The notes under the pieces: generated by a model
What the model was told of the DNA's origin: nothing
What the model saw: only the letters and a program-made list of their open reading frames with translations
Databases searched by the model: none
Assembly: GCA_019056805.1 (NCBI GenBank)
Contig: DXJG01000001.1
Coordinates: 120,001 to 152,000 of the forward strand
Source: Candidatus Baldrarchaeota archaeon
GTDB taxonomy: Archaea; Asgardarchaeota; Baldrarchaeia; Baldrarchaeales; DXJG01
Direction: 5' to 3'
Length of the DNA: 32,000 nucleotides
Shown: one piece after another, positions 5,828 through 22,290 of the stretch
Position numbering within the stretch: the stretch's first letter is position 1
Layout of the letters: every line of letters begins with the position of its first letter
Made by a program: the position numbers and the translations under genes

Positions 5828-6727
5828 TTGTTGACATTGCTAACAACTAATAAAAGGGGTTTGGAAATTCGCAAAAAATACATGGTAATCACAATCAAAA
5901 CGAAGTATTGGAAGCCTGGTACAAACTACATAGGTGTGATAGTGGATGTTCTAAAGGACAAAATTCGAAATGGCGATATAATTGTATTATCCGAGAAAGC
6001 ATTATCCACAGCTATGGGAAATCTCGTTGACGAATCTAAAGTAAAACCAAGTTCTCTGGCAAAATTTCTCGCTAATTTTTGGAATAGAATAATTTGGGGC
6101 TACATACTAGGGACACTCTGCCATCTTAAACCTGAAACAATCATCAAGCTACGAAACTACCCAGTTCGATACGGTGCAGCTCACAAACAATTAGCATTGT
6201 TTTACGGCGGATTCTTTCAAGCATTAAGACATTATTCTGAAGGAGGCATCGATGTTAGCAATATACCCTACACCTATGCATGCCTACCTTTAAAAAACCC
6301 TATAGACATTGCAAAAAGAATCTTAAAGGCCATAACACATGCTACTAGGAAAAAAGTAACAGTTATGATCGTTGATGGTGACAGTACCTTCTCTTTTAGA
6401 AATATTCACTTAGCTCCAAGAAAAGTTCCTGTTAAAGGACTTATACACTTCGGTGGATTCCTAACGTTTGTTATAGGTAGGTTCTTTAAAATGAAGAAAA
6501 CAGCCACCCCCATAGCTATTGTAGGTCGTCCATTACACATAAATGACGCCTTAGAAATAGCCGAACTAGCAGATAAAGCCAGGGGTCATGGAGCAGGCAT
6601 GACAGCCTGGGACATGGCAAAAAGATTTAAAGTCGGATTAACTCAAGTAACATGGGAAATGCTTAATAAAATAAAACATAAACCGATAACGATAATTAGA
6701 AGAATAAATCATGTCGTGGTGACTTGA
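5828..6727 (+). CDS. F420-0:gamma-glutamyl ligase-like (CofE-fold) protein, divergent paralog; start uncertain (5828/5861/5882)
   Basis: GDIIVLSEKALSTAMG, GGIDVSN, VMIVDGDS and TPIAIV motifs resemble the CofE/F420_ligase fold but differ from canonical CofE. Confidence 0.65.
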   Translation: MLTLLTTNKRGLEIRKKYMVITIKTKYWKPGTNYIGVIVDVLKDKIRNGDIIVLSEKALSTAMGNLVDESKVKPSSLAKFLANFWNRIIWGYILGTLCHLKPETIIKLRNYPVRYGAAHKQLALFYGGFFQALRHYSEGGIDVSNIPYTYACLPLKNPIDIAKRILKAITHATRKKVTVMIVDGDSTFSFRNIHLAPRKVPVKGLIHFGGFLTFVIGRFFKMKKTATPIAIVGRPLHINDALEIAELADKARGHGAGMTAWDMAKRFKVGLTQVTWEMLNKIKHKPITIIRRINHVVVT

Positions 6728-6775: not shown

Positions 6776-7672
6776 TTGTTATATATTGGTGATGTAGAAA
6801 TTGAAGACACCTTTGCTGAAATGTTTCCTATGTGGGCTTCTAGGATACTTATAACAGCCGACAATGAGAAATGGGCGTTGACTGCGGCTCAAGCGGCAAC
6901 AGGATTTGGAACTTCCATAATAATGTCTCCTGCAGAGGCCGGTATAGAGAGGCTTGTTTCACCTAATGAAACACCAGATGGGAGAGTTGGAGCTATAATT
7001 CAAATATATCACCGAACGAGATTGGAACTTAAAATTCAAATGATATTTAGAATAGGTCAATGTGTTCTTACATGTCCAACTACGGCAGCTTTTGATGCTC
7101 TGCCGGAGGCAAAACGCAAGGTGAAAATTGGTCCAGCTCTAAGAAAATTTGGAGATGGGTTTGAAGTAAGAGATAAATTAAACGGTAGAGACATTTGGCG
7201 AATACCCGTCATGGAAGGTGAATTTATTATTGAGAACCTTTTTGGAGTTAAACCAGCAATTGCTGGTGGAAACTTTCTCATCTTAGCTAAAGATAAGGCA
7301 ACGGGTCTTAAAGCAGCTGAAGAAGCTGTTGAAGCGATTAAAAAGAGCAAAGCAAAAGTAGTACTTACATTTCCAGGAGGAATTTGTAGATCAGGATCAA
7401 AAGTTGGATCACTTAAATACAAATTACCAGCATCGACAAATCATCTATTCTGTCCAACATTAAAGGATAAAGTGCCAGAAACAGCATTACCAAAGGATGT
7501 TAATAGCGTATATGAACTAGTTATAAACGGCTTAACAGTAGAAGACATCAAAGAAGCCATGGCAGTCGGAGTAAAAGCTGCTGCAAGTGTCGAAGGAGTT
7601 AAGAAAATTACAGCAGCAAACTATGGAGGAAAACTTGGACCATACAAAATATACCTAAAAGACATCATTTAA
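6776..7672 (+). CDS. ftr: Formylmethanofuran:H4MPT formyltransferase
   Basis: VEIEDTFAEMF, EAGIE, ETPDGR, RIGQCVLTCPTTA, GGNF, GGICRSGSKVGS, ASTNHLFCPTL, ITAANYGGKLG; GGAGGG SD upstream of a TTG start. Confidence 0.96.
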   Translation: MLYIGDVEIEDTFAEMFPMWASRILITADNEKWALTAAQAATGFGTSIIMSPAEAGIERLVSPNETPDGRVGAIIQIYHRTRLELKIQMIFRIGQCVLTCPTTAAFDALPEAKRKVKIGPALRKFGDGFEVRDKLNGRDIWRIPVMEGEFIIENLFGVKPAIAGGNFLILAKDKATGLKAAEEAVEAIKKSKAKVVLTFPGGICRSGSKVGSLKYKLPASTNHLFCPTLKDKVPETALPKDVNSVYELVINGLTVEDIKEAMAVGVKAAASVEGVKKITAANYGGKLGPYKIYLKDII

Positions 7673-7680
7673 ATCATGTC

Positions 7681-8736
7681 TCAGCTATCTAACAACCTCA
7701 AATAATCTGAACCATTAGCTTCAGGAGAGCCTATAAGTATTCGATAGTAGCTAGTTCCCACAGTCCTATTAATAATATTCTCCAATTTTCCCCTTACTTC
7801 AATTTTTTCTCCCTCTCTAGCTATATCACTATAAAGCCCCTCGTAAGAAACAACTTCCTTTATGTTACCATTAATTTTTGGGCCTTCCACAATTTTTACT
7901 TGACTAATCTCGTATATTGCTGGGTTAAATATCGAATTTTCTGCATTTACAACAGTAGCTCTAACTTTTACTATACCAACCGGCCGAAACACGAAATCAT
8001 CATATGAACTGGAAATTTCTTCTTCCACCTTTACTGGGTGTATAGAAAACAAAGTCCCATCAAAAATTCCTCGATTCCACTTTCTTTCACATATCTTTCT
8101 TGCATCATCTAATTCAAGACGATAAAGACTGGATACTTTAACACACCATTCCTTAAATTCAACTTTCGAAAATTTTCTTACATTAGAGGCAGAATCTCGA
8201 TAAAGATTTAACAACGTCTCCTTAACCTTGTAACTGTTGTCTTTTCCGTAAATTATTAAGTCTATGTCAGAGAATTCCACTCTATGAATATTAATAAGAA
8301 TCGACCCTGTAATCCCGAAAGAATTCAAAGGAACATTACTTTCCTTTGAAATCAACTTAACTAGTTTTATAACCTTTGATTCAAGTTCATCCTGCGCAGA
8401 ATTTTCTAAAATTTCTCTTAATCTTTCCTCAGGTTTAAAATGCTTTTCGATATAATCAGTCGGTACAAAAGACATCATTATATTCAGATTTTTATCCTTA
8501 TACAAATATTGCGGATACTTTTCCTTCAACAGGCTGAAAGTTTCCTTGAGCGAAGGTATTGTATAATGTCTTAATACACGTTTAAATTTCTCAACTCCAC
8601 GACCCCAAGAACCAGTTTCATCTGGTACATACTTTAAATATGCAATAATCTTGTCGTTAGGATGAATGTTGCCAACAACTACAAAAAATAAACCATCTTT
8701 AGTCAATAAATAATCTCTATCTCTAAATCCTCTCAT
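7681..8736 (-). CDS. Predicted Pol-beta-type nucleotidyltransferase (COG1665-like), paralog 2
   Basis: GITGSILINIHRVEFSDIDLIIYG (GS...DxD) motif, N-terminal HP...IIAYLKYVPD and a C-terminal OB-like region. Confidence 0.75.
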   Translation of the reverse strand: MRGFRDRDYLLTKDGLFFVVVGNIHPNDKIIAYLKYVPDETGSWGRGVEKFKRVLRHYTIPSLKETFSLLKEKYPQYLYKDKNLNIMMSFVPTDYIEKHFKPEERLREILENSAQDELESKVIKLVKLISKESNVPLNSFGITGSILINIHRVEFSDIDLIIYGKDNSYKVKETLLNLYRDSASNVRKFSKVEFKEWCVKVSSLYRLELDDARKICERKWNRGIFDGTLFSIHPVKVEEEISSSYDDFVFRPVGIVKVRATVVNAENSIFNPAIYEISQVKIVEGPKINGNIKEVVSYEGLYSDIAREGEKIEVRGKLENIINRTVGTSYYRILIGSPEANGSDYLRLLDS

Positions 8737-9767
8737 TATTCATCCTCCACCACAACCATGAAGTCCTTGGGATTTCCACCGATAATCAACCTATAATAAT
8801 AAAAATCATTTGATTGAAGGACTTTCTCGATAGTTCCTTGAACAACAACCTTTTCGCCTACACGAGCTTGTTCGCAAAATCTACCTCTAAAAGACACAAT
8901 TTCCTTTAGTGGGGCAACAGGATTTCCCTGTAAAAAAACAATACTATCTATAAGATATCTACATGGCGTAAAGATAGCTTCCTCATCATTGGTAATCCGT
9001 GCTTTTATCTTTGCCCTTCCTATAGGAACATAAATCTTTTCACCATACTTCTCTGTAATTTCACTCCAATCCTTAACAAATCTAATAAAATAATCTCTTC
9101 CTTTAAATTCTCCCTGCATAACTTTTCTTATTTCTGTTTTAATGAACTGTTCAAAAGAAACCTCAGTATCCCTGGCCCTAAATTTGTAAAGTTTTTTTAA
9201 ACCATTTTCATCGTAACTTTTAATGGGAGTTTCGGAAGAAACAAGCCACCTTAAAGCTTCATAGATCCTTACACAATTTGCGGTCCCGTAGACGACTACG
9301 TCTATATCCGAGTTTTCGTCATGTAAGTCTACAAGAATAGAACCTGAGATTCCAATTTTCTCCCAAGAAATTCCAGATTTTTCCTTCAACAGTTTGATAA
9401 ATTCGAAAGCATCTTTTTCTATCCCGGTGAGATTTTCGGAACGGTGTTTCATCTCGTGTAACTTTTTCTCAGGTTTATAATGCTTATATATACTTTCGGT
9501 AGGTACACCTTCTAATAACTGGTTAAAAACAGGGTCAAAGTAAAGATATTTAGGATAATTTTCTAATAAATACTTATTTCTTTCATGAAGAGAATAAATT
9601 TTCCTATAAAATCGTTTTCCTCTTTTTCTTTTTCCTTTCTCGTCTGGAGTATAACGAACATATGCTATTACACGATCTGGAGGATGAATTAAACCCTTTA
9701 CATCAAATATTAATCCCTCAAAGCTTTCGACAAAGTCTCCTTCACGTGCCTTCACTGTTTTTCTCAT
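8736..9767 (-). CDS. Predicted Pol-beta-type nucleotidyltransferase (COG1665-like), paralog 1
   Basis: GISGSILVDLHDENSDIDVVVYG motif; homologous along its length to the downstream gene; TAATG stop/start overlap. Confidence 0.75.
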   Translation of the reverse strand: MRKTVKAREGDFVESFEGLIFDVKGLIHPPDRVIAYVRYTPDEKGKRKRGKRFYRKIYSLHERNKYLLENYPKYLYFDPVFNQLLEGVPTESIYKHYKPEKKLHEMKHRSENLTGIEKDAFEFIKLLKEKSGISWEKIGISGSILVDLHDENSDIDVVVYGTANCVRIYEALRWLVSSETPIKSYDENGLKKLYKFRARDTEVSFEQFIKTEIRKVMQGEFKGRDYFIRFVKDWSEITEKYGEKIYVPIGRAKIKARITNDEEAIFTPCRYLIDSIVFLQGNPVAPLKEIVSFRGRFCEQARVGEKVVVQGTIEKVLQSNDFYYYRLIIGGNPKDFMVVVEDE

Positions 9768-9967
9768 GCCTTAGAACGCACCTATAAGTATGTGTATAAA
9801 AGTTGCGAGTCCTAAGTCTACTTAATCTTTGTGTTTTTAGTGATTTCATAAATAGCTCATAGATATCAGTAACTTAGATTTTCATCGAACTTAATGTTTC
9901 GTCGCTGCGATGTTATTTAAATTTAAATTATAATTTATAAAAAAATAAACGGTCTTGATGACGGGAC

Positions 9968-10702
9968 TTACGATCTGGGAAGAGGCCATCCGAGGTTTTT
10001 TAATGCTTCAACTAACGACATAGCTATTATTGCCGCAAATATTGCTTGGAACAACCGTATTATTGGATATACTAAGGGGCTAACAACAAATAGATATCTT
10101 ACAGTGTCGATTGTTAATCCAAAGATCCCGTTATAAACAATAGGAATAGCAAATATAACACATCCAAGTGCACTGTCGGCCTGATTTCCAATAAATGCCA
10201 AGAAGAAGTAGAAAACGAAGCTCCATACATGGGACAATTCATATTTTTTCATGAGATAAATTGTCGGGAAAATCATTAATAATGCGATTACTTTATCCCA
10301 GATGACAAGTGCTGCAACGTAATAGTACTGTATAATCGGTTGACTTGGAGGAAGAAATATGAAAGCTGCAATCACGGCTGCCATAACAGCAAATCCCTTT
10401 TTCCATTGACCCGTATAAACAAGACCAACAATAAATGCATTAATAGCTGGATTAAATAAAAACGGCATACCAAAGGGACTCCCCGAGCCAGGAGGCAGAA
10501 GCCATGCTAGAATAGCGCCCAAAAGAGCAGCCAAGGCACCAAGATATGGACCAAGAATAATGCCAAAAACTGAGGCCATAGCGGCTTCAAGTTGTATTGT
10601 TAACGTTGGTAAGCCTATGATAGGTAAACCAGGTAAAAGCGAGAAAATAGCATAGAGTGCAGCGAAAGATGCGGTTAGAGCAGTTTCTTTTGATGATACC
10701 AT
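9968..10702 (-). CDS. ECF transporter S-component-like integral membrane protein
   Basis: Strongly hydrophobic; N-terminal ALTASFAALYAIFS and GIILGPYLGALAALLG helix pattern typical of ECF S-components; GGTGA SD upstream. Confidence 0.7.
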   Translation of the reverse strand: MVSSKETALTASFAALYAIFSLLPGLPIIGLPTLTIQLEAAMASVFGIILGPYLGALAALLGAILAWLLPPGSGSPFGMPFLFNPAINAFIVGLVYTGQWKKGFAVMAAVIAAFIFLPPSQPIIQYYYVAALVIWDKVIALLMIFPTIYLMKKYELSHVWSFVFYFFLAFIGNQADSALGCVIFAIPIVYNGIFGLTIDTVRYLFVVSPLVYPIIRLFQAIFAAIIAMSLVEALKNLGWPLPRS

Positions 10703-10726
10703 ATTATCACCATCTTGTGTAATTTA

Positions 10727-10742
10727 CTACATAAGTATGTAG
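10727..10742. promoter_or_regulatory. Palindromic operator candidate CTACATA-AG-TATGTAG
   Basis: Perfect 7-bp arms with a 2-nt spacer, about 25 nt downstream of a minus-strand TATA box, i.e. across the expected transcription start of the ECF gene. Confidence 0.5.
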
Positions 10743-10760
10743 AGATTTACAGAACACTCA

Positions 10761-10780
10761 TATAAATACTTTGTGCACAA
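10761..10780 (-). promoter_or_regulatory. BRE/TATA promoter candidate for the ECF S-component gene
   Basis: Minus strand reads TTGTGCACAAAGTATTTATA: AAAGTA BRE-like plus TTTATA; includes a perfect 10-bp palindrome TTGTGCACAA (10771-10780). Confidence 0.45.
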
Positions 10781-11105
10781 CTAAAGAATCCCTAATTACA
10801 ATAAGACTAATTTAGCAGAACTAGTTGATTTAAAGAGACAGTATCTAATAAGAGATAGGAAACAAGTTGTATTTCCATGAGTTTTGTTATTTTAAATCCG
10901 AAGTAAATTAAAATTTCTATTTTTCAATTTTAATCGAGTTTCAAAGAAAAGTCAAGGCTCAACCATCATTTTTCTTACACAAAACCGGAAATAGACATAA
11001 TGCTAAAATGCACTTTTCAAAGCTTTTAGTATAGTGGTGTTTCCCAAGTTTTAATAAGTCTATTTTAATTCAAATATTGTTGACATTTTATGGAGAGTGT
11101 TGCTC

Positions 11106-12530
11106 ATGGAAGAATTATGGCCTTGGATTCTCCCTCTACCAAAGAAAACCAAAGAACAGTATGAGATCTTGTTATCAGTTTTCAAATCCAAGGTTTCACT
11201 AGATATTCTACTTAATATGGATATCAATAAGAAAAACTATCAAAAAGAACTAGTGGAGAAAATTCCTCATTCTAACAAATCAATAATAAATGCATTGAAA
11301 AAATTTGTTCGCGCAGGAATATTGGAACAAAAAACCGAGAAAATTAAAGTAAAAGATAAAGAAGTCTGGGTAAAATATTATACACTTACTTTTTTAGGCA
11401 AATATCTTAAATTGCTTTTAACACCTATAGATAAACTATCTTCTAAGGATGTAAAGGAAACAGTTAAAGAACTTTTTTATTTTTATGCTAAAAGCATAGC
11501 AAAACTATGCTTTGACTTTAATATAAGCCATGAAGTTTTTCATAACATTCTAAATAAATTATATCTGACCGAAGTTGTAAAAAGAGTTAGAGAATCAAGG
11601 AAAAGTGTTAAAGTAGTCGTATTTGGATCAACCGCAATTGACATAATAATACCCACCAGTAATGCCCCGATTGGACACGATCAAACCGTAACCATACGGG
11701 GATACATAAGTGATGTTGGTGGTTCAGCTACCAATGTAGCTATAGCACTTAGTAGACTAGGTGTTCCAACAGCGTTTTCTGGGAAGATTGGTGGAGACTA
11801 CGGAGGAAGAATTGCTGTTGAAAGAATGTTAGATGAAAACGTGGATATCTCATCTATTGTAATCGGCGAAGAACTTCAAACTCCACAATCAATAGTACTC
11901 GTGGGTAAAAATGGTGTAAAGAAGATACTTGTTCTCTTAGGGAATAATCCAGCTTTATCACTGTCATCCCCAGCAGAGGTGGACTGGTCCTTGGTAAATA
12001 GTTGTGAAATTGTCTATATTGGTGAGGTATTTGTAGAAGTAGCTTCTGCAATAGCTTCTTATGCGAAAAGCATGGGAAAATGGATAGTGTATAGACCTAT
12101 AACACCGTTCATAAAAATGGGATTTAAAAAATTAGAACCAATAATTAGAAGTTCAAATACCATAATTTTAAATGAAATCAACTGGAATGGATTAAAAAGA
12201 TCAACACCCGATGTAAATGCCCCCGCAGACCTATTAAATTTAGGTCCCGAGGAAGTTATCATAACAAAATCTAACAAAGGTGTAGAAGTTCATACGAAAG
12301 ATGAAATTTTTGAATTTCCTTCCTTTAAAGTCAAGGTTGTAGATACAACGGGAGCAGGAGATGCTTTCGCTGCTGGTTATATTAAAGCTCGGTTAGATGG
12401 AAAATCTTTACGAGAAGCTGTAAAATACGCATTAGCAGTTGCAGCATTGACAACCACAAAACTTGGAGTAAGAGTAGTTCTCCCAAAGGTTGAGGAAGTT
12501 GAAGAATTCATCAAAAAAGCTACATTTTAA
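11106..12530 (+). CDS. N-terminal winged-helix domain fused to a PfkB/ribokinase-family kinase
   Basis: Residues ~15-105 show a wHTH pattern (YQKELVEKIPHSNKSIINALKKFVRAGIL...YYTLTFLG); C-terminal GGSATNVAIALSRLG and VVDTTGAGDAFAAG PfkB signatures. ATG at 11106 follows GGAGAG; a GTG at 11097 is an alternative start. Confidence 0.85.
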   Translation: MEELWPWILPLPKKTKEQYEILLSVFKSKVSLDILLNMDINKKNYQKELVEKIPHSNKSIINALKKFVRAGILEQKTEKIKVKDKEVWVKYYTLTFLGKYLKLLLTPIDKLSSKDVKETVKELFYFYAKSIAKLCFDFNISHEVFHNILNKLYLTEVVKRVRESRKSVKVVVFGSTAIDIIIPTSNAPIGHDQTVTIRGYISDVGGSATNVAIALSRLGVPTAFSGKIGGDYGGRIAVERMLDENVDISSIVIGEELQTPQSIVLVGKNGVKKILVLLGNNPALSLSSPAEVDWSLVNSCEIVYIGEVFVEVASAIASYAKSMGKWIVYRPITPFIKMGFKKLEPIIRSSNTIILNEINWNGLKRSTPDVNAPADLLNLGPEEVIITKSNKGVEVHTKDEIFEFPSFKVKVVDTTGAGDAFAAGYIKARLDGKSLREAVKYALAVAALTTTKLGVRVVLPKVEEVEEFIKKATF

Positions 12531-12597
12531 TGCTCACTAAGTTTTACATTCAATAATAGTTAACAATAAAAATAAAATAAATTTTGAGAGTTCAAAA

Positions 12598-13593
12598 TTA
12601 TTCCTTGAAATGTGGTATTATTTCCTTGCTTATTAGGTCTATGGCTTCTCTTACGTTTGGTCCTATAGGTGATCCTACAACAAATTGCGAAATTCCTAGT
12701 TTAATCAATTCATTTATACGTTCGATACATGTTTCTGGTGTTCCGCTTATTGAAAATGCTTCAATCATTTCTGATGTCACTTTTGAGAATGCCTCACCCC
12801 AGTTTCCTGCTTCTAAAGCTTTCTTAATAGCCATGGCATCCTCTACACTAATTCCATGTTTTTCTAGTACAGGCTCTGGGCTACCAGAAACTATGAATGC
12901 AACTACTGGTGTTGCAGCCTTAATAGCTTTTTTCTCCTTTTCATGTATGGAGAAGGATGTATACGCAGCTACATCAATATCGGCTAGTTTTCTGTTTGCT
13001 GCTTCTGCTCCAGTTTTTATGTACTTTAGAGCATCCCCGATATCTTTTGGGTGTGAAGCATTAATCAGAACCCCGTCACCCATACTAGCTGCTAATTGAA
13101 GCATTTTAGGTCCTTGTGCACCTATATATATTGGAATTGTTCCTTTCGGTTTGAAATTGAACTTTGCCTTTTGAACACTGAATATTTTTCCAGCAAACTT
13201 TACTTTTCCTGTAGTGGTTAAAGATCTAATTATCTCTACACTTTCTCTGATAGCAGTAAGTGGTTTTTTAATTTCTATACCCAAGAGACTTAATGTAGTT
13301 TTGTCCCCAGCACCGATACCGAGGGTGACCCTGTTTGGAGCTATTTCAGATAGGGATGCAACTGATTGTGCAGTTACGACAGGGTTTATAAGATAGGGGT
13401 TTGTGACACCTGGACCTAATTTTATTTTGTTTGTATGTAAGGCTATGGTTGTTAAGGCTACGTAGACATTCCTATTATTGAAGTGGTCTGTTATCCATAC
13501 ATAATCAAAACCTGCTTTTTCAGCCTGAATTGTATAAAATGTGGTTCTCCAATACAAATCCATAGGAACGAATTCTATTCCAAACTTGACCAT
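12598..13593 (-). CDS. mer: F420-dependent methylene-H4MPT reductase
   Basis: KFGIEFVP, WITDHFNNRNVY, LGPGVTNPY, LGIGAGD, IGAQGPKML, VGSPIGP. Confidence 0.95.
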   Translation of the reverse strand: MVKFGIEFVPMDLYWRTTFYTIQAEKAGFDYVWITDHFNNRNVYVALTTIALHTNKIKLGPGVTNPYLINPVVTAQSVASLSEIAPNRVTLGIGAGDKTTLSLLGIEIKKPLTAIRESVEIIRSLTTTGKVKFAGKIFSVQKAKFNFKPKGTIPIYIGAQGPKMLQLAASMGDGVLINASHPKDIGDALKYIKTGAEAANRKLADIDVAAYTSFSIHEKEKKAIKAATPVVAFIVSGSPEPVLEKHGISVEDAMAIKKALEAGNWGEAFSKVTSEMIEAFSISGTPETCIERINELIKLGISQFVVGSPIGPNVREAIDLISKEIIPHFKE

Positions 13594-13620: not shown

Positions 13621-13887
13621 TTACTTTTTCAACTCCTTAGCAACGTCCCCTAGACCAGCGTTACTCAATAGTTCTACAGTCTGTTCCGGTTCGATGGTAT
13701 ATGCTGCTTCGAGCAATTTCTGAAAACCTTCATCAGATTCAAGTTTGTCATATTGCCAGTAATGAAGAAGCAAATTAGCTGTGCTGCTTGGAAGCTTAGA
13801 AGCATTGCCAGATCGCAATAATATGTCAATTAAAGGTGTAACTAGGCCTTTTCTTTTTTCTAAATCTATTTTTTTCACAAGTTCCAT
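13621..13887 (-). CDS. Small hypothetical helical protein between mtd and mer
   Basis: 88-aa ORF filling the gap exactly (16 nt after the mtd stop, 27 nt before mer), GAGAGGG SD-like sequence upstream, protein-like composition. Confidence 0.75.
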   Translation of the reverse strand: MELVKKIDLEKRKGLVTPLIDILLRSGNASKLPSSTANLLLHYWQYDKLESDEGFQKLLEAAYTIEPEQTVELLSNAGLGDVAKELKK

Positions 13888-13903: not shown

Positions 13904-14752
13904 TTACTCAGGTTTTTTAGGTTTTTCGATGAGTTTTCTTTTACTTAAAATTTCTCCAGTTTTGTGATGGGGCATTCTCAATAAGTAATCTCCATATTTT
14001 TCTATTTCTCGAGCTTCGTCAGCAAGCATAGCAGCTATTCGAATCATTTCATGGGCAGCAGCTACAATTGGAACATATCTTTCCATTTCTTTTATCATAA
14101 AGCAGCCTTCCACGGTAAGACTTGCAGCACTGCGAGCTATTTCATGAGCAGCCATAGCTTTTGCCAACGCATATGGATTCGAGAATCCTGCAGCCTTTAC
14201 AGCATTTTCTTTTTCAATGACTATTCTTGGAAGCTCAGGTTTTTCTCCTTTCTTTATTTGATCAATTACTCTGCCGATTTCTCTGTACACTATAGAAAAT
14301 ACACCAGTTACTGAAAGAACTTTAATTAAATCAGCGTTAAAGATAGCCATTTCTATTGGATCAAGAAATTCTCGTCTGGCACCGATCATAGCATCAGCGG
14401 CAATGATAAAATAACCCATATTTTTCTCTTCAATATCTTTCACCGCTTTTTTCCCAGGTTGATCACTGATAACTATTGTAGGAATATTTGATTGGGCTAA
14501 AATTTCTCTAGCCTTTTTGGGTCCAGGTAGTGCAGCATTTGGACTAATCACGATGATAAGATCCGGTTTGAAGTCTAAGATTTTTTTAGCAACTTCTTCT
14601 GCTTGCGCTGGACCCATTTTAGCTCCGCTTCCAACTACACGCACATCTAAATCTTCTCTATCAGCTCTTTCATCAAATAGAAACTCGATAAGAGGTGCCG
14701 TGCCAATATTACCGCATTTTACAACTCCTATTTTTATTATTCGCCCTTCCAT
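13904..14752 (-). CDS. mtd: F420-dependent methylene-H4MPT dehydrogenase
   Basis: KIGVVKCGNIG, DERADRED, GSGAKM, SPNAALPGP, MIGARREFLDPIEMAIFNAD, AAAHE; likely start is the ATG at 14752 after GGGGG (the ORF track start 14839 is AT-rich upstream sequence). Confidence 0.95.
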   Translation of the reverse strand: MEGRIIKIGVVKCGNIGTAPLIEFLFDERADREDLDVRVVGSGAKMGPAQAEEVAKKILDFKPDLIIVISPNAALPGPKKAREILAQSNIPTIVISDQPGKKAVKDIEEKNMGYFIIAADAMIGARREFLDPIEMAIFNADLIKVLSVTGVFSIVYREIGRVIDQIKKGEKPELPRIVIEKENAVKAAGFSNPYALAKAMAAHEIARSAASLTVEGCFMIKEMERYVPIVAAAHEMIRIAAMLADEAREIEKYGDYLLRMPHHKTGEILSKRKLIEKPKKPE

Positions 14753-14810
14753 TATTTTTCCCCCATTATTTTCTTCCAGTAAAATATTCAACAAACATAA
14801 TTTAACTGTT

Positions 14811-14818
14811 ATATATAA
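14811..14818 (-). promoter_or_regulatory. TATA box candidate for mtd-hyp-mer
   Basis: TTATATAT on the minus strand about 60 nt upstream of the mtd ATG, in the divergent intergenic region. Confidence 0.35.
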
Positions 14819-15048
14819 GTTTACTAGAATAACATTCATTACATAATTTTCGATATTTTTATGTTCACTTTACGTTTTAACACGTTTTTAATATCATTTT
14901 TTAACCTAAATGATAATAATTCGGTGGTTTAACACTAGAGAAGAGAAGTTACTATTATTGTTAATTTAGCATTTTTCAACTCTAGCTAAAATCTCAAAAA
15001 GGTTAAAAGCTAATATTATCAACATAACTCTGAGATTGAATCACCATC

Positions 15049-19309: not shown

Positions 19310-20278
19310 ATGCCTAAATTAAGCGTTAATGTGGAAGCGAAAAAAATTGTTGAAAAAATGATTGAAAATAGTAATTTGCTTAACATAAAAGTCGAAAAAA
19401 CACCATCGGGAGCAACAATTATAGATGCAGGAGTCGAAGTTAAAGGAGGGTTACTCGCCGGTAAATTCGTAACTGACATCTGTTTAGGAGGACTAGGAGA
19501 AACCCAACTGACCCAAGTTCCTTATGGAGATGTAGAGCTTCCCTCAATCTTTGTTGCTACAGATCATCCAGCTGTATCAACACTTGGTTCGCAGTTTGCA
19601 GGCTGGAGAATAAAAGTAGGCAAATATTTCGGTATGGGGTCTGGACCAGCTAGAGCTTTATCCTTAAAACCAAAAAAACTTTACGAAGAAATCGAATATG
19701 AAGACGAAGCAGATGTGGCTGTAATAGTTTTGGAATCTGATGAAAAACCAACAGAAGAGGCTCTAAAATATATTGCAGAAGAATGCAAAGTATCGATAGA
19801 AAATGTTTACGCCGTAGTTACACCAACTTCTAGTATAGCCGGATCCGTTCAAATATCTGGCCGGGTCGTTGAAACAGGTATACACAAAATTGCCGAAGTA
19901 GGTTTCGATCCAAAGAAGATTTTATACGCTTCCGGCTATGCACCAATAGCTCCCGTACATCCAAAATCCATAAAAGCTATGGGAAGAACAAACGATATGA
20001 TCCTCTACGGTGGGGTCGTTAAATTAATTGTCGAATACGATGACGATGAAAAACTAAAGGAGTACGTAGCAAAAGTTCCATCATGTACATCAAGAGACTA
20101 TGGTCGGCCCTTCTATGACATATTTAAAGCAGCTGAATTTGATTTCTATAAAATCAGCCCAGACTTGTTTGCACCAGCAAAAATAATCGTAAACAATGTA
20201 AAAACAGGGTCAACGTTTGTTGCAGGATACATTAACACAGAAGTTATACAACAATCAATAAAATTACAAAAACTATAA
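19310..20278 (+). CDS. mch: Methenyl-H4MPT cyclohydrolase
   Basis: IDAGV, CLGGLG, TDHPAVSTLGSQFAGW, GSGPARAL, GSVQISGRVVETG, MGRTNDMILYGG, DLFAPA; GGAGG SD. Confidence 0.96.
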   Translation: MPKLSVNVEAKKIVEKMIENSNLLNIKVEKTPSGATIIDAGVEVKGGLLAGKFVTDICLGGLGETQLTQVPYGDVELPSIFVATDHPAVSTLGSQFAGWRIKVGKYFGMGSGPARALSLKPKKLYEEIEYEDEADVAVIVLESDEKPTEEALKYIAEECKVSIENVYAVVTPTSSIAGSVQISGRVVETGIHKIAEVGFDPKKILYASGYAPIAPVHPKSIKAMGRTNDMILYGGVVKLIVEYDDDEKLKEYVAKVPSCTSRDYGRPFYDIFKAAEFDFYKISPDLFAPAKIIVNNVKTGSTFVAGYINTEVIQQSIKLQKL

Positions 20279-20445
20279 CCCATTTCTTTTATTTGTTTTC
20301 TAAATTTAAAATTGAAGTACACTACAGATTAGATTATTAAATACTATTTTTACTTAGAACTTGACTTGACATAGATCAAGTAACATGTAAAATAGGAACT
20401 AAAATAAGTGTTAGAAGTATGCTATTTTCTGGAGGCACTAACAAC

Positions 20446-21327
20446 ATGGTAAAGATCGGAATACTAACTAGGAACCCAGAAGCTTGGTGTTCAATGAATC
20501 TCATAAAAGCTTTTGAAAAACTAGGAGCAGAACCTGTATGTCTTCGATTTTCTAGACTTGTTGCAAAAGTAGGATCTAAACCGGTGGTTTATCACGAAGA
20601 CATTAATGTACTTGAAGAACTAGGAGCTTTGGTTATCCGCCCCATAGGTAGAGGGTCATTAGATGAATGTATATTCAGAATGGACATTTTACATAGACTT
20701 ACCCGACTGGGTCTCCCAGTAATAAATCATCCCTCGGCAATAGAAAAATGCATAGACAAATATTACGCTTTAACAATTTTAGAAGAACATGGAATCCCAG
20801 TACCAAAAACGGTTGTAACAGAAAGCGCCGAAGAAGCATTAAAAGCCTTTCATGAACTAGGAGGAGACGTAGTAATAAAACCACTATTTGGTTCAAGAGG
20901 AGTTGGTATAACAAGAATTTCGGATCCAGAAATAGCAACAAGAATATTTAGAGCTCTACAATTCACACATAACGTCTTGTACATACAGGAGTTTATACCA
21001 CATGGCACAAGAGATATCAGAGCGTTTGTAATAAACGAAGAAGTCGTAGCATCCATGTACAGAGAAGGAAGAAGCTGGAAAACAAATGTAGCGCAAGGAG
21101 CAGTACCAAAAATGTTAAAATTAGTGGGAGAAGCTGAAGAACTGGCTATAAAAGCTACAAAGGTAGTGGGGTGTGAAATAGCTGGAGTAGATATTTTAGA
21201 AGGTCCTAATGGACTCTACATAGTGGAGATAAACAGTCAGCCCGGATGGCGTGGAATACAAACAGTGACAAAAGTAAACATTGCAGAAGCAATAGCAAAA
21301 TATGTAATTGAAAGAGCAAAAAGGTAA
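20446..21327 (+). CDS. RimK/MptN (Orf5/MyfB-like) ATP-grasp alpha-L-glutamate ligase
   Basis: DKYY, VIKPLFGSRGVG, YIQEFI, DIRAFV, WKTNVAQG, AGVDILE, EINSQPGW; GGAGG 10 nt upstream of the ATG at 20446. Confidence 0.85.
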   Translation: MVKIGILTRNPEAWCSMNLIKAFEKLGAEPVCLRFSRLVAKVGSKPVVYHEDINVLEELGALVIRPIGRGSLDECIFRMDILHRLTRLGLPVINHPSAIEKCIDKYYALTILEEHGIPVPKTVVTESAEEALKAFHELGGDVVIKPLFGSRGVGITRISDPEIATRIFRALQFTHNVLYIQEFIPHGTRDIRAFVINEEVVASMYREGRSWKTNVAQGAVPKMLKLVGEAEELAIKATKVVGCEIAGVDILEGPNGLYIVEINSQPGWRGIQTVTKVNIAEAIAKYVIERAKR

Positions 21328-21330
21328 CTG

Positions 21331-22290
21331 GTGGCATCAATGCCAAAAGATACTGAAGAGATTATTAATAAAGTAGTGCAGTCAGCACAATTGGCAATGA
21401 TTCTTGAAGTAAGTGCTTATCCAAAACCTGGAAATGTACATAGAACGGCAGACTTTAAAGATACAACATACGAACATTTCTTGGCTTCGGCAATAGCGGT
21501 ATTACCTCAACTGCAAAAAGCAGCTAAAATGGGAGTTAAAGTTGCCCTATCTGAAATATCTCCTTCTCAAGCTGAGATAGGTAACATTATAAAAGAGGGG
21601 GTCATTGAGACAGCAAAATGGCAGAAAGGAGGAAATACAAATTTAGGGGTTCTCATACTTATGATTCCACTGATTATGGCAGAAACATACACACTTACGA
21701 AAAATCAAGAGTTAAAAAAACTTAGAAAAAATATTAAGCTATTTACTGAGGCAACAACACCTACTGACGCAATAAACTTGTACGAAGCCATAAAAATTGC
21801 AAAACCAGGAGGATTAGGAAAAACTAACTACCTAGATGTTACAGATCCAAAATCAACCAAGCAAATTATAAATCAGAAAATATCATTGTATAAAATTTTT
21901 GAAAAGTCAGCAAGCTACGATAAAATAGCCGAGGAATGGATTACAAATTATAAAATAACTTTTGAAATTGGGGCACCGTATTTACAAAGAGTGTATAAAG
22001 AAACTGGTAACACAAATATAGCGATAGTGCATACTTTTCTAAAAATTCTATCTACAATACCAGATACGTTAATTGCTAGGAAAACAAATTTCACTATGGC
22101 CCGAAAAATTTCTGAAAAGGCAAAACAAATTTTAGAACTAGGAGGCTTAACAACTGAAAGAGGAACAAAACTTCTATGGGAGTTCGATAAAGAATTAAGA
22201 AAGGAAGGTAACAAACTTAACCCGGGTACAACAGCGGACTTAACGGCATCAAGTCTCATGATTACAATATTTAACGGCTTCAAACCATAA
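21331..22290 (+). CDS. citG: CitG-family triphosphoribosyl-dephospho-CoA synthase-like protein (Orf7-like)
   Basis: LEVSAYPKPGNVHR, NTNLG, PDTLIARK, NPGTTADLTAS. Confidence 0.85.
   Translation: MASMPKDTEEIINKVVQSAQLAMILEVSAYPKPGNVHRTADFKDTTYEHFLASAIAVLPQLQKAAKMGVKVALSEISPSQAEIGNIIKEGVIETAKWQKGGNTNLGVLILMIPLIMAETYTLTKNQELKKLRKNIKLFTEATTPTDAINLYEAIKIAKPGGLGKTNYLDVTDPKSTKQIINQKISLYKIFEKSASYDKIAEEWITNYKITFEIGAPYLQRVYKETGNTNIAIVHTFLKILSTIPDTLIARKTNFTMARKISEKAKQILELGGLTTERGTKLLWEFDKELRKEGNKLNPGTTADLTASSLMITIFNGFKP

Follow-up and report, generated by a model that had tools for sequence, protein, structure and literature searches.

We analysed a 32,000-nucleotide stretch of DNA (hereafter the window) from a Candidatus Baldrarchaeota archaeon (assembly GCA_019056805.1), corresponding to positions 120001–152000 of contig 6 (DXJG01000001.1) of an Asgard genome of 1.92 Mb that is 91% complete and whose nearest public relatives are metagenome-assembled genomes of Baldrarchaeota type. 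Between the one-carbon (C1) genes ftr and mer lie four genes: one for a membrane protein resembling the S components of energy-coupling factor (ECF) transporters (S-like), two for nucleotidyltransferases that follow it (NTaseA and NTaseB) and, divergent from these, a gene fusing a winged helix-turn-helix (wHTH) domain to a PfkB domain. A preliminary description of the window had reported this order, and all four open reading frames (ORFs) lie where it placed them. The four genes most likely form a conserved unit by which a ready-made piece of methanopterin is imported and finished where the first enzymes of its synthesis are absent. The unit and its immediate neighbours are laid out as follows, in window coordinates.

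6776–7672, plus strand: ftr
7681–8736, minus strand: NTaseB, a Pol-beta-fold nucleotidyltransferase paralogue of 351 amino acids (aa), whose start overlaps the NTaseA stop by one base
8736–9767, minus strand: NTaseA, 343 aa, with an N-terminal beta domain, a Pol-beta NTase core and a C-terminal oligonucleotide/oligosaccharide-binding (OB) fold
9768–9967, minus strand: spacer of 200 nucleotides (nt) between S-like and NTaseA
9968–10702, minus strand: S-like, an ECF S-component-like membrane protein of 244 aa, the proposed importer of a methanopterin-core compound
10718–10751, no strand: operator-like element made of two 14-bp dyads, TGTAA-N4-YTACA
10760–10766, minus strand: TATA-box-like TTTATAT, as read on that strand
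11097–12530, plus strand: wHTH–PfkB fusion, with a probable start at the ATG at 11106
11097–11600, plus strand: wHTH-like N-terminal domain of the fusion, about 165 aa
11610–12530, plus strand: PfkB (ribokinase-superfamily) domain of the fusion, PF00294
12598–13593, minus strand: mer

The ATG at 11106 is the more likely start of the fusion because it aligns with the starts of its homologues.

A pattern scan with one genome per species returned 547 relatives of NTaseA, and the best 80 loci were kept; they come from Asgard archaea, Methanomethylicia and, for the most part, Bathyarchaeia, and neighbours were counted within 10 kb of NTaseA (loci carry L numbers below, Asgard families f numbers). 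Co-localization across genomes, on which the preliminary description had staked its proposal, was borne out in these NTaseA-centred loci, where the genes are found together across phyla. The commonest partner was a CitG-like gene (56/80 loci). By profile search, an S-like gene lay upstream of NTaseA in the same direction in 53 of the 80 species-level loci, with a CitG-like gene in between in some cases and a mer-like stretch in one; this arrangement is far beyond chance. The usual layout in Bathyarchaeia, with strands in brackets, is CitG(-), then S-like(+) and NTaseA(+), then two NTase genes(-) and finally the HTH gene(+).

Other lineages tie the nucleotidyltransferases to de novo synthesis of tetrahydromethanopterin (H4MPT). 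Three Asgard families (f2, f8 and f18) have a tight operon of MptG (ribofuranosylaminobenzene phosphate (RFAP) synthase), DUF1464, a DmrX-like flavoprotein/Fer4 protein, a dihydropteroate synthase-like (DHPS-like) enzyme with DUF6513, Pterin_bind and DUF4346 domains, MptA, NTaseA and NTaseB, and in loci L118–L120 NTaseA is the penultimate gene of this operon. The window has the same NTaseA/B pair at the 3′ end; unlike the de novo operon, it has the S-like gene in place of the five upstream genes. On a Bathyarchaeia-type contig, DmrX-like, DHPS-like and NTaseA genes stand in a row and adjoin MptE and MptA. Across 121 Asgard genomes the NTase family was confined to families with MptG or an S-like gene, and none was found in the ten families that have neither. 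NTaseA and NTaseB are thereby shown by association to be H4MPT biosynthesis genes; their chemistry we infer. The preliminary description had counted them as salvage genes, a view that we abandon since they are integral to the de novo operon of other lineages. As a separate observation, an Asgard de novo H4MPT operon adjoins a gene for a 370-aa protein with a TrmB-type HTH and TiaS TCKD/FLD-like domains (L118:13150-14262, minus strand).

NTaseA scores 21.7 bits against PF01909 (cut-off 21) and NTaseB 18.7 bits, under the same cut-off, and 19 of 20 NTase family members match this model. The two proteins share 35% identity and both keep the G-S ... D-x-D motif, of which G142-S143 and D154-x-D156 are invariant across four paralogue groups (A–D), each a separate and widely conserved orthologous group. 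NTaseA has 3287 homologues, at 50–56% identity in Bathyarchaeia; in Asgard and Bathyarchaeia loci, NTaseB orthologues (41–52% identity) lie either after NTaseA or facing it, and the top matches and atlas clusters of the family are from Bathyarchaeia, Thermoproteota and Asgard archaea. NTaseC and NTaseD form a second tandem pair 22 kb upstream (contig 6, 105671-107775; L010:5671-7775), beside DUF166, a CooC-like ATPase and two CdhD genes. About 40 of the 56 related genomes have orthologues of this pair; among the 9 Bathyarchaeia genomes with MptG, they were found in just 2. We considered NTaseC/D as a replacement for MptG and rejected the idea, as they co-occur with MptG in Asgard families f8 and f18 and in two Bathyarchaeia genomes.

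The structure model of NTaseA (predicted local distance difference test (pLDDT) 93.5) places its core, residues 112–235, near TUT7 and PolX (Z 8.0) and its C-terminal OB fold near SSB and MCM (Z 8–9). Among annotated shapes in the ESM atlas the model matches MdcG best, at template modelling (TM) scores of 0.58 by target and 0.39 by query; the alignment to this atlas cluster spans 166 residues at a root-mean-square deviation of 3.9. No MdcG or CitX structure appeared among the Protein Data Bank (PDB) matches of the model, for which a Foldseek search with the whole chain gave OB-fold matches only (E above 1e-3), and comparing the NTaseA sequence with PDB chains produced no meaningful match. Likewise, the MdcG/CitX families (PF03802, PF10620, PF20866) gave no signal at E up to 5 in 20 NTase members.

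The pairing of a CitG-family enzyme with an NTase-fold protein in the genome recalls CitG–CitX of citrate lyase and MdcB–MdcG of malonate decarboxylase, whose chemistry would fit the alpha-ribosyl-5-phosphate diester of methanopterin. The differences are a lack of any sequence-level match to CitX or MdcG, the extra OB fold of NTaseA, the four paralogues and, in place of an acyl carrier protein, what is presumably a small-molecule acceptor. The preliminary description had drawn on the logic of FAD synthetase for this step and had missed the CitG-like partner; the enzymes look more like CitX/MdcG-type transferases that would work with it. In methylotrophs, dephospho-H4MPT carries neither the phosphate nor the hydroxyglutarate, which fits a CitG-like ribosylation shared with bacteria and an NTase step peculiar to archaea. 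The window's order of mch, glutamate ligase and CitG-like gene recurs in the gene list of Methylomonas sp. DH-1 (PMC11533326).

A different account would make the nucleotidyltransferases CitX/MdcG-like holo-protein synthases, which load a CitG-made phosphoribosyl group onto a Wood-Ljungdahl protein, or RNA-directed enzymes, and in either case not enzymes of the methanopterin tail. The OB fold, most like those of SSB, RPA, MCM and editosome proteins, would suit this, as would the conservation of four paralogues, the position of NTaseC/D beside CdhD, the CooC-like gene and DUF166, and the fact that known CitX and MdcG enzymes act on acyl carrier proteins. However, NTaseA/B sit inside an operon otherwise made up purely of H4MPT biosynthesis genes, the phyletic pattern of the family tracks MptG or the S-like gene, and the loci examined hold no conserved carrier-protein gene beside the NTases. 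We regard such an account as improbable.

The S-like protein falls at the edge of known S-component families. It scores 28.5 bits against PF07155, a riboflavin-type family (barely over the cut-off of 26.7), 28.7 bits against PF12822 (under the cut-off of 30.7) and 21.3 bits against the folT family TIGR04518 (under the cut-off of 60). Its model (pLDDT 90.5) supports an S-component fold: the best-ranked Foldseek matches in the PDB are the ECF S components BioY, FolT, RibU, PanT and ThiT (probability 1.00, E 4e-3 and weaker; TM by target 0.68 for RibU), and atlas matches reach a TM by target of 0.71–0.78. Helix 1 is rich in alanine and conserved, and the family has conserved motifs of its own (GPxxG, G-N-Q-A-D and YPxxR) and several paralogues per genome.

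As the preliminary description had recognized, no ECF A or T gene adjoins the S-like gene; the genome carries a solitary EcfA–A′–T set on contig 17, a fused EcfAA′–T set on contig 9 and CbiMNQO, and the solitary set makes a group II organization plausible. The S-like protein would then resemble group II S components (FolT, RibU, BioY, ThiT, PanT) in its fold, in being encoded alone with EcfAA′T elsewhere and in an Ala-rich helix 1 predicted to lie on the coupling helices of EcfT; it differs in its motifs and in length, at 244 aa here and 320–410 aa in some Bathyarchaeia. A predicted complex with the genome's EcfT favours binding: it scored 0.63 against 0.02 for the best of three controls, above a mark that is reached by 58 of 80 complexes of solved structure and by 2 of 110 mismatched pairs. 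The runs agreed in at least 80% of contacts, with partner pLDDT of at least 78, and the predicted interface uses helix 1 and includes residues 7–20. ECF complexes have already been solved, so this docking result stands as a likeness, not as proof, and may reflect those known structures.

Size variants of the S-like protein occur at L056:3820-5058, L057:2895-4097, L072:1-1194, L080:7595-8794 and L023:8964-9965. In the long forms (382–410 aa) some 145 aa are inserted after residue 153; those of about 320 aa carry an additional hydrophobic segment in the middle, which is also seen in Bathyarchaeota BA2. On contig 9 (601432-605082; L092), the fused EcfAA′ and EcfT genes are followed by two ORFs, of 227 and 217 aa, that have no Pfam match and may encode additional S components; the first contains a single dyad half-site.

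The distribution of the S-like gene is complementary to that of the first synthesis enzymes. Among 56 NTase-bearing genomes, MptG scored over its cut-off in 9, and an S-like gene beside NTaseA was present in none of these 9 and in 38 of the 47 without MptG (Fisher 6e-6). The DUF4346 DHPS-like enzyme was found in exactly the 9 genomes with MptG, adjoining it. On the NTaseA tree, MptG changes at least four to five times independently, and in independent pairs the S-like gene went opposite to MptG (mean 3.3 of 4) or was unchanged, never in the same direction. Among Asgard families, f2, f4, f8, f9, f10, f17, f18, f23 and f27 have MptG and the DHPS-like enzyme and lack the S-like gene, and f1, f3, f15, f20 and f26 show the reverse. 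Family f7 has the S-like gene without MptG, with a DHPS-like match in 1 of 17 genomes, and f12 has MptG with weak matches to S-like paralogues.

The window's own family belongs with the genomes that lack MptG, which was found in none of its four genomes. In the window's genome (91% complete), tblastn found MptA and MptE, and no MptG, DUF1464, DHPS-like enzyme, MptD or clear DmrX. The simplest reading of the shared absence of MptG and the DHPS-like enzyme from genomes with S-like beside NTaseA is that the imported compound lies downstream of the pterin–arylamine condensation; import of RFAP alone is less likely because the DHPS-like enzyme is missing together with MptG.

Family f3 shows the arrangement in compact form. 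A closed 1.4-Mb genome (G056) has mtd, the HTH gene, S-like and mer in this order and no MptG, and in loci L109 and L117 the HTH and S-like genes stand alone between mtd and mer, with paired dyads. A CitG-like gene was found in three of the four f3 genomes together with an MptE-like gene; MptG, the DHPS-like enzyme and NTase were not found.

These patterns also bear on the idea that the substrate taken up by the S-like protein is an unrelated vitamin, for instance riboflavin, folate or biotin, that the core is made by non-homologous enzymes and that neighbourhood and complementarity reflect clade history. The marginal match to a riboflavin-type family and the several paralogues per genome accord with it, as do the persistence in the window's own genome of an MptE-like gene and a Pterin_bind ORF and a sign test on the independent pairs that is not significant (p 0.125–0.5). 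Yet NTaseA has the S-like gene upstream of it in 53 of 80 loci, and in Asgard f3 this gene lies between mtd and mer. The complementarity is found again and again: in two phyla, in about 15 Asgard families and over at least four to five changes on the Bathyarchaeia tree. In L058, a close relative in which MptG was regained or kept, the S-like gene carried by the nearest neighbours is missing. We consider import of an unrelated vitamin unlikely.

The preliminary description had proposed that the fusion is a built-in regulator of the divergent genes, and its N-terminal part is indeed conserved and regulator-like. The N-terminal 170 aa gave sub-threshold wHTH matches only (DUF2250, E 0.007; MarR_2, E 0.014); a profile of the family matches AdcR at E 0.037, with weak likeness to MarR, ArsR and TrmB, and the language-model neighbours of the domain are HTH_27, TrmB and MarR clusters (0.90–0.93). 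About 165 aa of it form a conserved family of their own (alignment A3, mean column identity 54%), which occurs as a stand-alone protein of 154–173 aa in most Bathyarchaeia and in Asgard f3. The HTH gene lies within the locus in 36 of the 80 loci, and the divergent pair of wHTH(–PfkB) and S-like genes is retained in Asgard f1, f3, f7, f15 and f20.

The intergenic DNA on which the regulator was predicted to act contains a conserved dyad. Copies of TGTAA-N4-YTACA at 10718–10731 and 10738–10751, 20 bp apart, make up an element 16–49 nt upstream of the S-like ATG and 8 nt downstream of the TATA-like box; the region between TATA box and start is the usual position of an archaeal repressor. The window holds two dyad matches against 0.17 expected, and the full paired element, searched as two dyads separated by 6 nt, occurs once in the 1.92-Mb genome. 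The paired dyads are conserved in L006, L011 and L012, where the remainder of the spacer diverges. In 1.07 Mb from the 80 related loci the dyad occurs at 53 sites, where shuffled sequence gives an expectation of 4.6; about 46 of the sites fall in the divergent promoter of S-like and CitG, directly after a TTATTAA box. In Bathyarchaeia TTATTAA is followed by GTGTAA-N4-TTACAC; Asgard f3 has the same order of TATA box and dyad, with the same paired dyads as the window, and variants that keep this geometry occur in f15, f7 and f20. We take the element to be a candidate operator at the S-like promoter, with binding of the wHTH protein predicted from these sequence patterns. No Rfam family, and hence no riboswitch, was found in 7000–13000 at E up to 1. 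The divergent spacer also contains a direct repeat of 26 nt (77% identity), with one copy at 10789–10814, about 90–110 nt upstream of the S-like start, and the other at 11042–11067, 30–55 nt upstream of the fusion start.

The 200-nt spacer between S-like and NTaseA has an oligo-T tract about 20 nt past the stop codon of S-like and, about 30 nt ahead of the NTaseA ATG, a TATA-like box; the corresponding gap in most Bathyarchaeia loci is only about 30–60 nt. The tract and the long spacer suggest that NTaseA/B may have their own promoter and be transcribed separately in this genome.

The PfkB part of the fusion is well supported as a domain (PF00294, 160.6 bits) and stays below every NCBIfam equivalog cut-off (ribokinase TIGR02152, 150.5 versus 299.65). 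Across 23 homologues the catalytic Asp of GAGD (D422), G208/G209, N359 and D182 are invariant or nearly so, which argues for a predicted kinase activity. Full-length fusions form about 32 sequence clusters and occur in three contexts: with NTaseA and S-like, followed by the fusion; with NTaseB, NTaseA and a CitG-like gene, followed by the fusion and a CofE-like gene; and between mptD and mptE, as in the MptG-bearing families f8 and f18. An unfused PfkB orthologue belongs to an EcfAA′–EcfT–S–PfkB operon beside NTaseC, NTaseB and NTaseD. Every context examined for the fusion or its PfkB orthologues is H4MPT-related. Separately, genes for ThiW and a ThiD/ThiN fusion (L103:1025-2918) adjoin this operon and its NTase genes.

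PfkB as a constant member of the module was rejected: it is present in 4 of the 80 loci, and orthologues occur in about 5 of the 56 genomes. Phosphorylation, which the preliminary description had made a fixed step between import and nucleotidylation, is not constant, given that the domain occurs in a minority of modules and also in de novo mptD-X-mptE operons. Purely by inference, a candidate substrate is the 5-OH on the ribofuranosyl group of an intermediate that has been imported or dephosphorylated; a second and less likely candidate is 6-hydroxymethyl-dihydropterin.

The domain might also be a ligand-sensing module without metabolic role, or the fusion might regulate ribose or nucleoside metabolism and merely neighbour the transporter gene. 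Its NxxE motif is degenerate, reading N-E-I-N where ribokinases have N-E-T-E, and of the RbsK residues Asn14 is replaced by Ala and Lys43 by Ser, with Asp16 kept; the HTH protein also lacks PfkB in most modules, and the best family matches are ribokinase and ribose-1-phosphate kinases, all of which would agree with such readings. Set against them are the (near) invariance of the catalytic Asp, the anion hole, the GG pair and D182 in fusions down to 33% identity and the H4MPT-related setting of all contexts found (the S-like/NTase module, CitG and mptD-X-mptE), where no ribose-catabolic neighbours were seen. To either version we give little credence.

The wider window places the locus within a large H4MPT/C1 gene island, as the flanking genes indicate (ftr, mer, mtd, fwdDBAC, mch). 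Beyond mtd it contains fwdDBAC, mch, a RimK/MptN-like ligase and the CitG-like gene, and the ligase and CitG-like gene at 20419–22290 are probable pathway partners of the nucleotidyltransferases. The remaining features are as follows.

5828–6727, plus strand: CofE-like gene, 48 nt upstream of ftr
13621–13887, minus strand: ORF of 88 aa between mer and mtd
13904–14839, minus strand: mtd
19310–22290, plus strand: mch, RimK/MptN-like ligase and CitG-like gene
20419–21327, plus strand: RimK/MptN-like ATP-grasp ligase (Pfam), downstream of mch
21331–22290, plus strand: CitG-like gene (Pfam; CitG-family score 267.8 bits)

The CofE-fold gene matches F420_ligase at 68 bits, well under the CofE equivalog cut-offs; its pairing with ftr or the module is retained in L006, L012 and L101, and it may encode a polyglutamyl ligase that acts on a different C1 cofactor. 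The 88-aa ORF has counterparts at the same position in L006 (90 aa) and L012 (77% identity) and a 37% match in L101.

Taken together, we find it fairly probable that the four genes are the salvage form of a supply system for an H4MPT-type C1 carrier, the uptake, regulatory and kinase steps being read from gene content and sequence. The S-like protein would act as a group II ECF S component, use the genome's shared EcfAA′T module and import a preformed compound that already contains the pterin–arylamine core, which the retained tail enzymes would complete or remodel. NTaseA/B and the CitG-like enzyme would most likely build the H4MPT tail: the CitG-like enzyme may attach a 5-triphospho-alpha-ribosyl group, and an NTase, in the manner of CitX/MdcG, may join the phosphoribosyl-bearing intermediate to a hydroxyl acceptor, for example 2-hydroxyglutarate, with release of pyrophosphate. 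The PfkB domain is probably an active kinase that would act on, or sense, a ribosyl-bearing intermediate, for example by re-phosphorylating a dephospho form ahead of the NTase step. The wHTH domain would bind the paired dyads and repress uptake when the cofactor pool suffices. The proposal of C1-cofactor salvage in the preliminary description thus survives in part: the cofactor would be H4MPT, and the complementarity of S-like to MptG and the DHPS-like enzyme is salvage-like, whereas the nucleotidyltransferases are not specific to salvage.

Several observations weigh against this reading. Most of the genomes compared are incomplete metagenome-assembled genomes, 9 of the 47 without MptG also lack an S-like gene beside NTaseA, and Asgard f13 has both MptG and an S-like paralogue. 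With only four to five independent pairs, the sign test is underpowered. The MptE-like gene retained in S-like lineages is not explained by import of a pterin–arylamine core, and the one strong Pterin_bind ORF in the window's genome could encode another condensing enzyme. The likeness of NTaseA to MdcG is structural only, the wHTH assignments lie under curated thresholds, and a dyad confined to the S-like promoter, followed by the oligo-T-bearing spacer, leaves co-regulation of NTaseA/B unsupported in this genome. As for the fusion, its NxxE motif departs from that of ribokinases, its PfkB domain is absent from most modules, including most of those in Bathyarchaeia, and its presence in the mptD-X-mptE operons of de novo lineages makes it a methanopterin-pathway protein that is not specific to salvage.

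The proposed system has parallels in the RbkR- and ThiR-type archaeal regulators, in which a wHTH domain is fused to a cofactor enzyme. As in these, a wHTH domain is joined to a kinase of the pathway that it is proposed to control, and the fusion gene adjoins and diverges from the gene of a proposed vitamin transporter, with a palindromic site in the shared promoter. It differs in that the kinase is PfkB-type, not a CTP-dependent riboflavin kinase or ThiN, that the pathway is that of methanopterin and that the HTH part stands alone in most lineages, and DNA binding is here predicted. Folate salvage by FolT and uptake of p-aminobenzoate (pABA)-glutamate by AbgT offer a second parallel, since a preformed pterin-arylamine cofactor or fragment would likewise be taken up instead of made de novo; unlike these, the carrier is methanopterin-type and the tail-building enzymes are retained.

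Extended beyond the window, the proposal is that most Bathyarchaeia and several Asgard families, the window's Baldrarchaeia-type lineage among them, cannot make the pterin–arylamine core and scavenge it from other archaea through a dedicated ECF 'methanopterin transporter' under repression by a pathway-specific wHTH(–PfkB) regulator, and that the CitG-like enzyme and CitX/MdcG-like NTases are the long-missing tail enzymes. We advance this broader version tentatively, as a possibility somewhat short of even. About seven methanopterin biosynthesis proteins were still listed as unknown in 2011 (PMC3087415), and our literature search found no paper that assigns them, or that links or assigns the genes of this locus. 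What this work newly contributes is a proposed transporter, a proposed regulator and its candidate operator, the finding that S-like is complementary to MptG and the DHPS-like enzyme, and a de novo operon in which NTaseA/B are anchored.

The locus offers a concrete candidate set for the missing proteins (the CitG-like enzyme, NTaseA to NTaseD and the PfkB kinase) and leads us to propose the first transporter, and the first transcriptional regulator with an operator, for a methanopterin-type cofactor. If the complementarity reflects true auxotrophy, many uncultured Wood-Ljungdahl archaea, among them Bathyarchaeia and several Asgard families, would rely on their neighbours for the C1 carrier. 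Such dependence would bear on their ecology, on cultivation, where methanopterin or a precursor could be supplied as a supplement, and on metabolic reconstructions that assume these archaea to be self-sufficient.

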